Of a stretch of 64,000 nt of DNA, positions 40,101 through 43,019 are shown in pieces. Made by a program: the position numbers and the translations under genes. The notes beneath the pieces were generated by a model. That model saw only the letters and a program-made list of their open reading frames with translations, was not told the origin of the DNA and did not search any database. Origin of the DNA: Octopus vulgaris. Lineage: Eukaryota. Location: the NCBI GenBank assembly GCA_951406725.2, contig OX597814.1, positions 97,340,001-97,404,000 on the forward strand, written 5' to 3'. How positions within the stretch are numbered: the first letter of the stretch is position 1; each line of letters starts with the position of its first letter.

Positions 40101-43019
40101 AGATTTAAAATACACATACTTACATGCATGTGCATGCACACACACATGTATGTATATAAATTAATCCCCAATATTAAATATGCTTTCATAGCACTGTTCA
40201 GTATATATATTTATACATATATATACATATACTTATATATACATGTATATATATATACATTTCTAGATGCATACATATATAATTATATACATATACATAC
40301 ATACATACATACATATATATATATATATATATATATATATATACATACATATATATATATATATATATATATATGTGTGTGTGTGTGTGTGTGTGTGTGT
40401 GTGTGTGTGTGTGTGTGTGTGTATATACACATATATATCGTTTGGGTAGTATGGTATTATCCATACAATTTCAAAATAAGGTGATTAGAATCAAAATAAG
40501 CAACAAGGATATCCAGAGGTAATGCAATTCGATCGTTTCATGCAACTCCATTTAATTGAACAATGCAACCATTACATCAATTTAAATGCAGAGCTTTCCT
40601 CAGCTGCACAAAGACATAGAATTTAATTAGATTAAAACAGATGGACACATTAGTATAATTTTACTGAAAATCTCCAAGAAGTTAAGGAGATAGACAAAGA
40701 ACATGCTGTTTTCACTTCCACTTAGAAGCTACTAAGGTATCAGGAAGAAAGACTTGTTACAGATTTTGCTTGTCACTGTTTTATGGAGTCAGTTTTAATT
40801 TATAGACTAGTTTTGTCAAATCCTTGTATATTTAAGGCTAAGAGAACAAGGGGCAGTGTCTGTTAGGGGTAGGGCTGAGGGAGTCGATAGAAATCATAGT
40901 GAGTATAGTTATAAAAATCAAGATTTATTTGAAGCAATATCATGAGATTTGGTAAAGGAAAACTTAAATCAAGATGTTAGCTGACAATTAAGGGGGCTGG
41001 CCACTAGCAGACCATTGATAATGAAACAGGGGAAATCTTATCATGTAGTACTATAGTTAAATATTTTAAGCAATATTGCCATATTGTATAAAGTTAAAGT
41101 TTAGGGTTATTCAAAGGATTATTAAGAAGAATATTATAACAAAAGGATAAAAAAACGATAAAAAGTTTTATGAATACTTTTGATTATATACCAAACTTTT
41201 ATCACAATAGAGGGAGGAAAAGAAATTATTTAGAAATAGTTTAATATTTATACATATTATATACTTAAATACTAACTTATCAGATCAGTGAATATTGATC
41301 AATTGGTATATACTGGTATTTAATAAAGGAGTACTGAGGTTGTGAATATACACACATACATATGTATTTCATGGACACATACACATGTATTACATGGAAG
41401 TATGCACACACTCACACCTTACATGCAAGCATGCATGCACATACACACACACATGACAGGTTCCTTTCAACATCCGTCTATTCATCCAGCAAAGGCTTTT
41501 GCTTTTGTCATTTGAGGGTTATAGTAGAAAGCACTTGCCCAAGGTGACATCCAGTGCCCTGTCATGATTGGGAAGCAAACAGCTTCACAACAGCCTCACC
41601 ACACAGTCATACAATATCTATAAACCACTCATTGCCCCTAGTAATTCAATGTGTGTTTAATCAGAACTGACTTGGGTGAGATAACAACAACTAGTTGATT
41701 TTGAAGGGATAATCAGGTTCACATGGTGTATTTCAATACAAAATTTCATTGTAGTTGAATTCAAATTTTTATCATTATCCATATGTCAAAACAAAATATA
41801 ATTAATGTAATAGCACCTGCAAATTTAAGATTAGTTTTCTAAATAATTATCAAATTCCACTGAAGTTTCTTGATCTGATAAAATTCAAAATATATTAGAA
41901 TTAATGCTTGTATTTTATATTTTATATTTTATATGGTGAGTGCAGGCATGGCTACGTGGTTATGAAATTTGCTTTCCAATCACATGGTTTTGGGTTCAGT
42001 CCCACTGCATGAAACCTTGGCCAAATGACATACTGTAGCCCTGGATTGACCAAGGTCATATAAGTGGGGATTGATAGATGGAAACTGAAAGAAGTCTAAT
42101 GCATATATATGTGGTGTGTGTGTGTGTGTGTGTGTGTACTTATTCTGTAGGGCTCATTTACCAAACCACTAAGCTATGGGAAATGTAAACACACTAACAC
42201 TGGTTGTCAAGTGGTGGTGGTGGGGATAAACGTAGACTCAAAGACATACACACACACACACATACATATATGTATACGACAGGCTTGTGTGTGTGTGTGT
42301 GTGTGTGTGTGTGTGTGTGTATGTGTGTGTGTGTGTGTGTATGTGTGTGTTTGTGTGTGTTTGTGTGTGTGGGCACGTATGCACATGTGCATATGCAGGT
42401 GTGTTGTGTATTTGTGTCTCTGTGTCTTGACATTGTATGACGATTATAAACATGCACAAGTGATGTCTTTCACTTCCAGATCTTTCCTGAAAGCATATCT
42501 GACCAGGAAGAAATATTATCTCACTTCTTCGAAACAGTAGCAGCTTGATGAAAGGAAAGGCATCTGGTTGGAGAAAATCTGCCTCAGTGAATTCTATTTA
42601 ATTGATGCATAGTAATGTAGAAGTTAAAATGATGATGATGATGATGATGATGATGATGACAACAATGGAAGGTACTTCTTTAATAAAATAAAGGAATAGA
42701 AAATGTTCAACTAACCTCCACCATTTTTAGCAGCACATGATGCAAAGTGTAGGATCGAACTGATGTTTAGCGCCAATGAACTCACTGAGAAGAAATAATC
42801 TATCTGATTCTGCCATCCTTCAGGATCTTTTGGTGGATTTGTTTCATAGTATCGAATGGGAACACTGCTTTCTGAGTAATCAGGAGATGTCACTTCTGGA
42901 ACAACTTCACTGTATGGTTCAGGTATGGATACATTGTCATTATGAGATTGGTCGGAATCACTTAGACAAAGGTCAGACTCATCAAGATAAGCTATCCGTA
43001 TTCCGGCATTGGCTGTACT
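7013..43019 (-). CDS. Multi-exon SLC6/NSS-family transporter-like gene (divergent). 11 traced coding exons, 615 codons; 5' start exon and terminal exon uncertain
   Basis: Manual splicing gives a continuous frame with SLC6 hallmarks in order: W..QID, KNGGGAF, GLPL.YLE..IGQY, YY.V.MSW.LYY, LPW.C, PY, VW.DA..Q.F.SL, AFI.FPE, P.WS.LF..ML, FEC....W.YG, W..VTP, IGW. Exon lengths 304/132/138/160/124/135/104/125/248/201/174 with matching phases. Subfamily cannot be assigned by eye. Confidence 0.93.
7322..7600. repeat. Long inverted repeat (about 139-bp arms, 4-nt loop GTAG at 7461-7464)
   Basis: Arm comparison by hand: 8 substitutions and one 3-bp indel. Confidence 0.95.
8530..8925 (+). mobile_element. 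Penelope-like element relic (GIY-YIG endonuclease fragment)
   Basis: NLIYII*CKGC followed, after a frameshift, by [19 protein letters not shown] (ORF 8714..8977): GIY-YIG layout of PLE endonucleases. Confidence 0.7.
12669..13050 (+). mobile_element. Probable Helitron-type 5' segment
   Basis: A|TCTCTTATATAAAA start followed by gtct/gt repeats and ...tcaaatttgatatgtaga, similar in style to the 5' ends of the Helitrons at 49868 and 56976. No 3' CTAG end found. Confidence 0.4.
13783..13877. repeat. Near-perfect hairpin (46-bp arms, 3-nt loop, 1 mismatch)
   Basis: tgttgtgtctggagagagtcattctcttttagtgccttattattta-TGT-taaataataaggcactaaaagagaatgactctccccagacacaaca. Confidence 0.95.
14079..14279 (-). 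CDS. SLC6-like exon: TM10 and start of TM11 ([34 protein letters not shown]...[14 protein letters not shown])
   Basis: Acceptor ctactttacaAG, donor GTAAGT. 201 nt, phase 0-0; FEC....W.YG and W...W..VTP motifs. Confidence 0.93.
16534..16781 (-). CDS. SLC6-like exon: EL4, TM8 and TM9 ([39 protein letters not shown]...SLFILSQ)
   Basis: Acceptor atctttacAG, donor GTAAGA. 248 nt, phase 1-0; lies within ORF 16447..16917. Confidence 0.93.
17865..19126 (+). mobile_element. Mariner DNA transposon, near full length, transposase pseudogene (about 18051-19049)
   Basis: Degenerate TIRs (atgggtcaacttatagataatg / cattatttgtgggatgacccaa) with TA flanks. Fragments [58 protein letters not shown]; stops and frameshifts. 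Confidence 0.92.
20530..20960. repeat. Degenerate ~47-bp tandem array
   Basis: gtaat/gtcagt unit starts at 20673, 20720, 20767, 20814 and 20861 (exact 47-nt spacing), looser units at 20574, 20623 and 20910; agaatgc(t/a) recurs. Confidence 0.5.
24197..24321 (-). CDS. SLC6-like exon: TM7 ([42 protein letters not shown])
   Basis: Acceptor ttttttgtttAG, donor GTAAGT. 125 nt, phase 2-1; N....... G...F...G spacing of TM7. Confidence 0.9.
25440..26870 (+). mobile_element. Old decayed RTE-clade LINE reverse-transcriptase region
   Basis: [18 protein letters not shown] near 25910-25965, homologous to the better-preserved copy at 33295; heavily disrupted. Confidence 0.7.
28166..28269 (-). CDS. SLC6-like exon: TM6 ([34 protein letters not shown])
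   Basis: Acceptor cattttcAG, donor GTAAGT. 104 nt, phase 0-2; VW.DA..Q.F.SL..G.G motif. Confidence 0.94.
28635..28940 (-). mobile_element. RTE-type 3' tail element ending in (GAT)n
   Basis: atgctagcatggaagcggacgttaaatgatgatgat end. Same tail at about 29770-30125(+), 34295-34450(+), 37730-38010(+), 49520-49590(+), 58840-58990(-), 59330-59520(-). Confidence 0.65.
29604..29770. repeat. Compound (TACA)n(TA)n microsatellite, representative of many
   Basis: Directly visible. Other large tracts at 2375-2435, 11997-12036, 17805-17864, 22260-22322, 22735-22870, 24810-24970, 40290-40435, 49430-49505, 51780-51855, 53183-53290, 60806-60862, 62120-62200 ((TTA)n), 62315-62530. Confidence 0.95.
30443..30577 (-). 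CDS. SLC6-like exon: TM5/EL3 ([45 protein letters not shown])
   Basis: Acceptor tttcattatAG, donor GTATGT. 135 nt, phase 0-0; Y.TA..PY and L.GA...FL.P.W motifs. Confidence 0.93.
31062..31225 (+). mobile_element. Short mariner-derived deletion derivative
   Basis: TA|aggggatgctgaaaagttcctg TIR-like start and a transposase C-terminal remnant ([10 protein letters not shown]..., YVE*). Confidence 0.5.
31468..31591 (-). CDS. SLC6-like exon: TM4 ([42 protein letters not shown])
   Basis: Acceptor ttttgttgttAG, donor GTAAGC. 124 nt, phase 2-0; W.L.LCL...W and RGI.S..K motifs. Confidence 0.93.
31710..32912 (-). mobile_element. Mariner DNA transposon, near full length, transposase pseudogene
   Basis: TIRs ctaggttggccaaaaagtctgttcagttttt / aaaaactggacagacttttggccaacccaa with TA flanks. 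ORF fragments [30 protein letters not shown]; frameshifted. Confidence 0.92.
33295..33815 (+). mobile_element. RTE-clade LINE reverse-transcriptase fragment with Cys-rich (PHD-like) insertion
   Basis: [13 protein letters not shown] upstream of ORF 33403..33852 ([12 protein letters not shown] ... C..C..WTHKRC ... C..C ... [10 protein letters not shown]). Confidence 0.85.
33991..34150 (-). CDS. SLC6-like exon: extracellular loop 2 ([53 protein letters not shown])
   Basis: Acceptor cttttctcacAG, donor GTAAGT. 160 nt open, phase 1-2, exactly bridging the flanking exons. Has the second EL2 Cys, N-glycosylation sequons NTT/NTS and a PS..YF motif. Confidence 0.88.
35825..35962 (-). CDS. SLC6-like exon: TM3 and start of EL2 ([46 protein letters not shown])
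   Basis: Acceptor tttatAG, donor GTGAGT. 138 nt, phase 1-1; YY.V..W..YY and LPW.C motifs. Not in the ORF track. Confidence 0.93.
38958..39402 (+). mobile_element. Two tandem Meta/MESC-like SINEs
   Basis: Same unit as 370-1265 in the opposite orientation. Further copies at about 2745-2960(+), 12330-12535(+), 13347-13555(+), 21600-21812(-), 43708-43915(+), 63108-63298(-). Confidence 0.8.
39621..39752 (-). CDS. SLC6-like exon: TM2 ([44 protein letters not shown])
   Basis: Acceptor tatttcAG, donor GTTATT (weak). 132 nt, phase 1-1; classic GLPL.YLE..IGQY motif. Confidence 0.93.
40522..40609 (-). ncRNA. Degenerate type I hammerhead ribozyme motif in a Penelope-like terminal repeat relic
   Basis: Minus strand: gtgcag-CTGAGGA-(catttaa...ttaaatg stem II)-GAAA-cgatcg-AA-ttgcat. 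Palindromic stem III; the conserved U of NUH is replaced by A. Confidence 0.6.
42716..43019 (-). CDS. SLC6-like exon: N-terminal tail + TM1 (STANAG...[35 protein letters not shown])
   Basis: Acceptor ttttttttAG at 43021-43020, donor GTTAGT at 42715. Frame open for 304 nt, ends phase 1 in the NGG|G motif. No in-frame ATG, so an upstream coding exon is required. Confidence 0.88.

Follow-up and report, generated by a model that had tools for sequence, protein, structure and literature searches.

An octopod SLC6 gene with jointly replaced TM1 gate and ion-site residues, kept by selection and possibly encoding a binding protein that no longer pumps

Background

In SLC6 transporters the first transmembrane segment (TM1) carries residues of the substrate position, the Na1 site and both gates. 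The Na1, Na2 and gate sites are defined in LeuT numbering, where N27 is a Na1 ligand and the R30-D404 pair seals the outer path (bioRxiv 2020.08.20.259572), and residue lists for the chloride site are found in PMC6590891 and PMC12139788. The inner-gate arginine (LeuT R5) is present in LeuT and all 19 human SLC6 proteins in Table 1 of PMC12685850. It is reported that its replacement by proline in human GAT1 (R44P) abolishes uptake, with surface delivery retained (PMC12685850). We describe a gene of Octopus vulgaris (genome 2.8 Gb, 227 contigs) that has the same Arg>Pro replacement together with changes at the substrate, Na1 and outer-gate positions of TM1. Eleven of its exons lie in a stretch of 64,000 nucleotides, C1:97340001-97404000 (C1 is contig OX597814.1), which is called the window below.

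Divergent or signalling SLC6 members occur in other invertebrates. Drosophila blot-type genes belong with the insect orphan SLC6s, and C. elegans SNF-12 is an SLC6 protein in immune signalling. Another C. elegans member, SNF-10, acts in sperm activation; no substrate has been assigned to it, and a review assumes that it takes up an unknown substance (PMC10136096). The kind of protein studied here is already known, since silkworm SLC6s with divergent TM1 and TM6 have been reported: Bombyx BmCT1-L and BmSLC6-14/15/16 are orphans of unknown function (PMC5085708).

The octopus gene itself is apparently undescribed so far. A literature search found no title or abstract on it, with most subscription journals outside the coverage. 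The main text of an octopus SLC6 phylogeny preprint (10.1101/301192) does not discuss it, and the 503-protein tree in the supplements may include it. The available part of PMC9815951 names only dat and slc6a15/18 among SLC6 genes.

Results and discussion

TM1 is altered in the genome and in spliced transcripts

The minus-strand translation of window positions 42716-42830 is the TM1 peptide of the gene. No gap is needed to align it with TM1 of human and fly DAT, with hDAT R60 replaced by Pro, D79 by Asn, N82 by Ser, R85 by His, and WRFPY by LHFAS. Relative to LeuT numbering, TM1 also has G20>S, G26>S and P32>A. In TM8, TLNS (minus strand from 16683) aligns to GLDS, with Gly>Thr and Asp>Asn. Apart from G20>S and G26>S, these changes in TM1 and TM8 had been pointed out in a preliminary description of the window, and the translation and the alignments confirm them. 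Residue numbers below are those of the full-protein model, including a start exon outside the window.

A genome search with canonical TM1 queries gives 28 other matches. R5, W8, L25, N27, W29, R30, F31 and P32 are present in all 28, and the studied gene retains only W8 and F31 among these eight positions. The G24/D98 position is Gly in 24 of the other matches and Asp in four. Note that canonical queries were used to find the paralogues, and another equally degenerate TM1 would escape them. A search with the TM2 exon gives 27 matches; because the 26 others all lie within canonical-TM1 genes (assigned by coordinates), this is the sole degenerate TM1 detected in the genome. Among TM1 columns conserved in at least 90% of 26 paralogues, the studied gene deviates at 11 of 16, and each paralogue at no more than two. 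Outside TM1 it deviates at 10 of 30 such columns. The departure in TM1 exceeds chance.

Four probable RNA runs from four studies were aligned to window 39450-43400, a region covering the TM1-TM2 intron only. In each of them a contig skips this intron of 2963 bases and has the TM1 and TM2 exons joined. The TM1 exon is covered over 42715-43021 without a difference in three runs; in the fourth, which has another organism code, 7 of 268 bases differ. RNA contigs of 6166 and 5334 bases are consistent with a full mRNA. The three runs without differences rule out an assembly error as the source of the altered TM1.

The altered TM1 is shared with Argonauta and under purifying selection

One of 61 candidates in an orthologue search, the partial Argonauta hians protein GAB1598094.1 (326 residues), is the orthologue. 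It is 85.6% identical to the octopus protein, with 47 differences and neither stop nor gap over the 326 residues. It carries PF00209, and its automatic NCBI name is 'dopamine transporter-like'. The name is unsupported, because the TM1 residues that define the monoamine type and the glycine type are both absent. Argonauta TM1 has the identical P, N, S, L, H and A replacements; inside the TM1 site the sole differences between the two species are I121/L and S122/T. Identity is 93/100 in the N-terminal tail, 33/37 in TM1 and 58/79 in the second extracellular loop (EL2). Fossil calibration places the split between the octopus and argonaut lineages at about 29 million years ago or earlier (PMC12682272).

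In place of the ratio of nonsynonymous to synonymous changes, selection was assessed by protein-level neutral simulation of the same codons (1000 runs in each of three settings). The 47 differences have a mean BLOSUM62 score of +0.70, against -0.43 to -0.54 in neutral simulations, and 0 of 1000 runs reach the observed value in each setting. Neutral simulations free of stops number 45-60 in 1000, and those with as few changes in the N-tail as observed 5-10 in 1000. This tail of 100 residues, which contains 7 Tyr and 21 acidic residues (Asp/Glu), is the best-conserved region. Residues 1-326 are under purifying selection, and decay is rejected for the N-terminal half because the Argonauta comparison is incompatible with neutral change. 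For the C-terminal half, the evidence of intactness is the open frame.

The gene is real, spliced and under selection. The preliminary description had taken it for a repurposed SLC6 and not a pseudogene, and the TM1-TM2 splice, the orthologue and the simulation support this view; its further suggestion of examining orthologues and related clades turned up neither a disrupted orthologue nor a characterised clade with the same residues. As the argonaut shares the changed TM1 and the gene is intact, the protein is likely to be repurposed and has probably ceased to move the usual substrates.

Exon structure and family membership

The 11 exons in the window begin with that of TM1 (43019) and end with that of TM12 (7013); they comprise 615 open codons and are separated by 10 introns, all GT..AG. 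These are the figures of the preliminary description; they are exact for the window, and the whole gene is larger, with both end exons outside (Table 1). The TM1 exon has no Met, and the coding ends extend past the window on both sides. The start exon has 35 codons with an ATG and a GT donor and is a 97% match to residues 1-35 of the Argonauta protein, so that the first intron spans about 135.7 kb (C1:97383020-97518704). At the other end, a predicted C-terminal exon with a strong phase-0 acceptor lies about 30 kb downstream of the window part. Three minus-strand WGP motifs are found in a 214-kb region, and two of them are DWGP, one in this predicted exon and the other in its counterpart in the neighbouring SLC6 gene (see below). 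If the DWGP exon runs to its own stop, the modelled gene has 13 coding exons and 720 residues; the exon has an internal donor, and an additional exon is possible. Window 6166-6432 (-) was the last exon in a 738-residue model and was dropped once the DWGP exon was found. This 88-codon open frame, which follows an AG acceptor in TM12 phase, is probably intron, with an alternative terminal exon possible. The trees and site tables were built on core columns only, and the change of terminal exon has no effect on either.

The TM2, TM3, TM5, TM8-9 and TM10-11 exons each exceed the 27-bit cut-off of Pfam SNF (PF00209). TM4 and TM6 match below it, TM1 has an E value of 0.16, and the TM7 and TM12 exons searched alone have no match. 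The TM7/EL4 exon, which alone finds no relevant PDB match either, was identified via splice signals and phase and is gap-free to the TM7 exon of the neighbour. The segments of a possible LeuT-type 12-TM topology align in order, and EL2 has a Cys pair and sequons. Judged by the Pfam matches, the protein is a member by descent of the SLC6 or neurotransmitter:sodium symporter (NSS) family. AlphaFold gives a predicted local distance difference test score (pLDDT) of 45 and a predicted template modelling score (pTM) of 0.27 for the 326-residue orthologue alone, and 52 and 0.33 with 14 sequences. TM1 is one unbroken helix in these models, which cover half the protein at low confidence, have no control and are not counted as evidence. 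Foldseek with the half-protein model finds no match at E<=0.001.

Mobile-element sequence occurs in the introns. The EL2-TM4 intron contains a reverse-transcriptase fragment at window 33313-33849 (+) (RVT_1, E 4e-5) and a mariner-type transposase fragment at 32040-32351 (-) (Transposase_1, E 6e-14). Within the giant first intron, an open frame of 122 codons at window 52264-52629 (+) has no Pfam match; we take it to resemble a retroelement endonuclease remnant.

Table 1. Features of the octopus SLC6 gene (positions in the window unless given as C1)
Feature	Position	Strand	Evidence
Start exon	C1:97518705-97518809, outside window	-	Match to Argonauta N-terminus, ATG, GT donor
N-tail (acidic, Tyr-rich, cytoplasmic) and altered TM1 exon	42716..43019	-	Translation, splice signals, RNA contigs
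Pro101 at inner-gate Arg (LeuT R5, hGAT1 R44)	42822..42824	-	Gap-free alignment
Asn120 at G24/D98 substrate position	42765..42767	-	Gap-free alignment
Ser123 at Na1 Asn (LeuT N27)	42756..42758	-	Gap-free alignment
His126 at outer-gate Arg (LeuT R30)	42747..42749	-	Gap-free alignment
TM2 exon, retains chloride-site Tyr143 and Glu158	39621..39752	-	Pfam SNF E 8e-10; RNA-joined to TM1 exon
TM3 exon, retains Tyr197 (LeuT Y108)	35825..35962	-	Splice model, Pfam, structure-library match
EL2 exon, second Cys and two N-glycosylation sequons	33991..34150	-	Splice signals; colinear with Argonauta
TM4 exon	31468..31591	-	Splice model; colinear with Argonauta; sub-cut-off Pfam match
TM5 exon	30443..30577	-	Splice model, Pfam
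TM6 exon, retains Gln374, Ser378, Gly382/Gly384, Tyr392; F253>Leu377 (aromatic lid), F259>Thr383	28166..28269	-	
TM7/EL4 exon, Asn410 kept, chloride-site Ser>Thr414, Glu415 adjacent	24197..24321	-	
Fused TM8-TM9 exon: TLNS 16683-16672, Gln485 (LeuT Q361), Ile493 at inner-gate D369	16534..16781	-	
Fused TM10-TM11 exon, retains Asp535 (LeuT D404)	14079..14279	-	
TM12 exon	7013..7186	-	Splice signals, phase; weak alignment to reference SLC6 TM12
Predicted C-terminal exon with DWGP	C1:97316952-97317164, outside window	-	Phase-0 acceptor, motif shared with neighbour

Likely origin from the lineage of a GlyT-like neighbour

The phylogeny has 38 rows and 336 core columns, of which the incomplete paralogue rows cover 210-335, and two TM1-only loci (C1:74.15 Mb and C6:77.35 Mb) are left out. 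The octopus-argonaut stem has 1.55 substitutions/site under LG+F+G4 and about 2.4 under LG+C20, the longest in the family, and the distance between the two species is 0.16-0.17. A long stem branch was followed by stasis. Identity to the paralogues is only about 30-35%. The tree, proposed in the preliminary description as a check, thus brings out the long branch, and its two models fail to place the gene.

Gene structure is more informative about descent. A canonical-TM1 SLC6 gene lies on the same strand about 28 kb downstream (C1:97257900-97288919, -). Its TM5-6 exon is clearly GlyT-like (102.7 bits, with the next subfamily at 81.9), and it is the best genome match of the TM2 exon of the studied gene. 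The TM8/9 intron is absent from both genes, and among 25 others that were scored 21 have it; three further genes lacking it form a separate clade. Similarly, the TM10/11 intron is absent from both and present in 8/8 other non-orphan genes in which the exon end was read. Note that the TM8/9 read-through is a result of alignment rather than RNA, since the codon at the old TM8 intron site of the studied gene starts GTA. The shared intron losses and the adjacency of the two genes indicate a GlyT-like parent, so that the gene likely arose by tandem duplication from the lineage of this neighbour.

Compared with 1.84 billion representatives, the TM8-9 exon has 105 matches at E<=0.001, none at 1e-10. 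Identity is 26-40% in those that span at least 60 residues and reaches 53% in short matches. The search cannot show absence from squid or other molluscs, because it returns no close cephalopod orthologue at all. An ESM Atlas search gives generic SNF clusters only.

The neighbour has oddities of its own. TM5 and TM6 are encoded by a fused exon, TM8 reads GLST and TM3 reads YYT, A22 is replaced by Val, and the TM7 Na1 Asn by Asp. Elsewhere in the genome, tandem SLC6 clusters comprise four genes at C12:80.56-80.72 Mb and three at C6:98.51-98.66 Mb. The C6 genes have a long stem branch, and their TM1 carries Ser/Thr in place of G26. One SLC6 gene has two tandem copies of its TM8-9 exon, possibly mutually exclusive (C17:43158883-43159379, -). 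The TM5 exon at C4:136004700-136004825 (-) and that at C4:137187213-137187338 (+) have equal scores; the inverted copy, about 1.2 Mb from the gene, is a partial duplication or an assembly duplicate.

The pocket appears remodelled, not erased

The preliminary description spoke of a collapsed motif. This is overstated when the whole site is considered, as most of the chloride/Na2 half of the pocket and the equivalents of Tyr108, Tyr268 and Asp404 are retained. At the inner gate, R5 is replaced by Pro101 and its partner D369 by Ile493; W104, Y392 and Q485 (LeuT W8, Y268 and Q361) are retained. At the outer gate, R30 is replaced by His126 and the F253 lid by Leu377, with Asp535 and Tyr197 retained. 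Among the Na1 ligands (LeuT A22, N27, T254 and N286), A118, S378 and N410 are retained and N27 is replaced by Ser123. The Na2 ligands (G20, V23, A351, T354/D and S355) read S116, L119, I475, N478 and S479, so that backbone ligands are altered and the side chains are polar. Neither the 26 paralogues nor the 101 scorable members of the 105 library matches have Asn at the T354 position. At the chloride site (SERT Y121, Q332, S336, S372 and N101/N368), Y143, Q374, S378 and N410 are kept, S372 is replaced by Thr414 and N101 by Ser123. Glu415 (TM7) is one position past the chloride-site Ser/LeuT E290 and could place a permanent negative charge close to the ion sites.

Overall, the equivalents of Y47, E62, Y108, Q250, T/S254, N286, S355 and D404 and the TM6 Gly-x-Gly are retained. 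Most site residues of the other helices being kept, the predicted pocket is remodelled with polar residues on its TM1 side rather than erased.

Does the protein still pump?

The reading we favour, at a little under an even chance, is that of a surface protein which binds a ligand or ion, no longer pumps, and acts through its conserved tail. Tandem duplication of the GlyT-like neighbour would have founded the gene. TM1 would then have lost the Na1 Asn and both gate arginines, and selection would have frozen the change. The alternating-access cycle driven by Na1 and substrate would be lost, because the inner salt bridge is gone on both sides, R30 is His, the lid is Leu and N27 is Ser. The old pocket may still bind an ion or small ligand, since the TM1 replacements are polar and site residues in TM2, TM3, TM6, TM7, TM8 and TM10 are kept. 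The protein would sit at the cell surface, where the acidic, Tyr-rich cytoplasmic N-tail would signal or scaffold. We infer each of these steps (origin, surface location, cycle loss, retained binding and the role of the tail) from sequence. In its most specific form, a pseudo-transporter evolved in cephalopods in which a GlyT duplicate became a receptor-like sensor or scaffold, with ligand or ion bound in the old pocket and signalling by the tail, the proposal is tentative and rather unlikely to hold in full. In favour of a protein that binds without pumping, several gate and ion-site changes occur together and are concentrated in TM1.

A number of observations weigh against it. The equivalents of Y47, E62, Y108, Q250, T/S254, N286, S355 and D404 are those a working carrier would need, and the inner gate likewise has W8, Y268 and Q361 in place. 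One of the 26 paralogues and two of 10 references also carry G20>S. In LeuT, R5A or D369A is mild and Y268A drastic (PMC4447972), and SERT N101A transports when Ca2+ occupies Na1 (PMC5207061, citing earlier work). The conservation figure of the N-tail stands without comparison to ordinary octopod SLC6s. As for the GlyT-like origin, grouping with the neighbour (approximately unbiased test, p-AU 0.59) and with three Asp-type monoamine genes (p-AU 0.55) are both unrejected, and at 33.8% identity the neighbour is equalled or exceeded by two other paralogues.

Such points lead to the main alternative, a rewired carrier that still cycles, moving a solute other than the ordinary amino acids and monoamines with only the Na2/chloride half or protons as drive. 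This is a serious candidate, if clearly below an even chance, and almost as likely as the non-pumping protein, since ion and gate residues outside TM1 are mostly kept and LeuT tolerates the loss of R5. As proposed, Asn120 would stand in for the Asp98/carboxylate ligand, and the outer gate would respond to pH through a His126-Asp535 pair. The S>T and D>N substitutions are conservative, the TM1 replacements (S, N, S, S, H) are polar, none greasy, and Y47, Y108, Q250, S254, N286, S355, D404, W8, Y268, Q361 and the TM6 Gly-x-Gly are in place. The joint loss of the inner salt-bridge partners resembles coordinated redesign, single losses are tolerated (LeuT R5A and SERT N101A; PMC4447972, PMC5207061), and a stem of 1.55-2.4 substitutions/site gives scope for compensation. 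Against a carrier of this kind, R5, N27, W29, R30 and P32 are invariant in 28/28 other TM1 matches, Asp- and Gly-type alike, hGAT1 R44P shows no uptake (PMC12685850), and the analyses here point to no substrate. If both charge gates and the aromatic lid are gone (R5>P, D369>I, R30>H, F253>L), ions might instead pass uncoupled through a channel-like leak. SERT has an uncoupled Na+ conducting state (PMC5207061) and the chloride-site residues are retained here, but with W8/Y268/Q361 and Y108 retained the hydrophobic seals may persist, and this behaviour is improbable.

The remaining explanations would need less novelty of function. An accessory subunit or chaperone could pair with the GlyT-like neighbour or another SLC6; the neighbour adjoins on the same strand and has the intron losses in common, yet tandem duplication alone predicts adjacency, and we regard such a role as quite improbable. 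Classical Na1-coupled symport of amino acids or amines is very unlikely. To the credit of an ordinary Na+/Cl- coupled amino-acid or monoamine transporter are the automatic name of the argonaut protein, the unrejected monoamine grouping and the many site residues kept. Neither Asp nor Gly is present at G24/D98, however, N27 and R30 are gone, and among solved structures the N-terminal half has its best sequence match in GlyT2, not DAT; there is very little to be expected of this explanation. That this is a duplicate in decay, a recently dead one or an artefact of assembly has hardly any probability left. Such a case would suit the longest branch in the family and the identity of about 30% to all paralogues. 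Against it are a modelled frame free of stops and frameshifts, spliced contigs in 4/4 runs with TM1 unchanged in three, and the Argonauta comparison, by which neutral change is rejected and decay largely refuted for residues 1-326.

In this gene, residues deemed indispensable in SLC6 were replaced jointly, and selection has preserved the replacements for about 29 million years or longer. One of these replacements, Arg>Pro, is known from human GAT1 as an epilepsy variant. If the protein transports, neither the Na1 Asn nor the two gate arginines would be required for alternating access. A protein that does not transport would be a natural case of a neurotransmitter-transporter scaffold become sensor or scaffold. 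On the sensor reading, it would be a natural SLC6 with both gates and Na1 dismantled and then fixed by selection. The setting is a lineage with an independently elaborated nervous system, and the adjoining canonical-TM1 gene is a ready comparison.

Comparison with known SLC6 systems

Among described systems, human GlyT2 (SLC6A5) and the GlyT1/PROT amino-acid branch are closest in several respects. GlyT2 is the best PDB sequence match of the N-terminal half of the orthologue, at 133 bits, and the exon layout, the C-terminal DWGP and the chloride-site Tyr/Gln/Ser are those of the GlyT-like neighbour. Unlike GlyT/PROT, the octopus protein has GLGN.WRFPY replaced, Asn120 instead of Gly, and R5, N27 and R30 gone. 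Trp482 and Ser479 in TM6 of GlyT2 read Thr and Ala.

DAT, SERT and NET (SLC6A2-4) resemble the octopus protein in having a polar non-glycine residue at the G24/D98 position, and they are the top PDB matches of the TM1 peptide alone, though weak (E about 0.08). The residue itself differs, being Asn120 in both octopod species for D79/D98, and the equivalents of N82/N101 and R85/R104 are gone. The genome separately has four true Asp-type TM1 matches.

In contrast to the insect orphan SLC6s, the change in the octopus protein is concentrated in TM1, with TM6 mostly kept. Its origin looks independent of these orphans, through a local cephalopod duplication. The likeness of SNF-10 and SNF-12 lies in the proposed role, as these are SLC6 proteins within signalling pathways.

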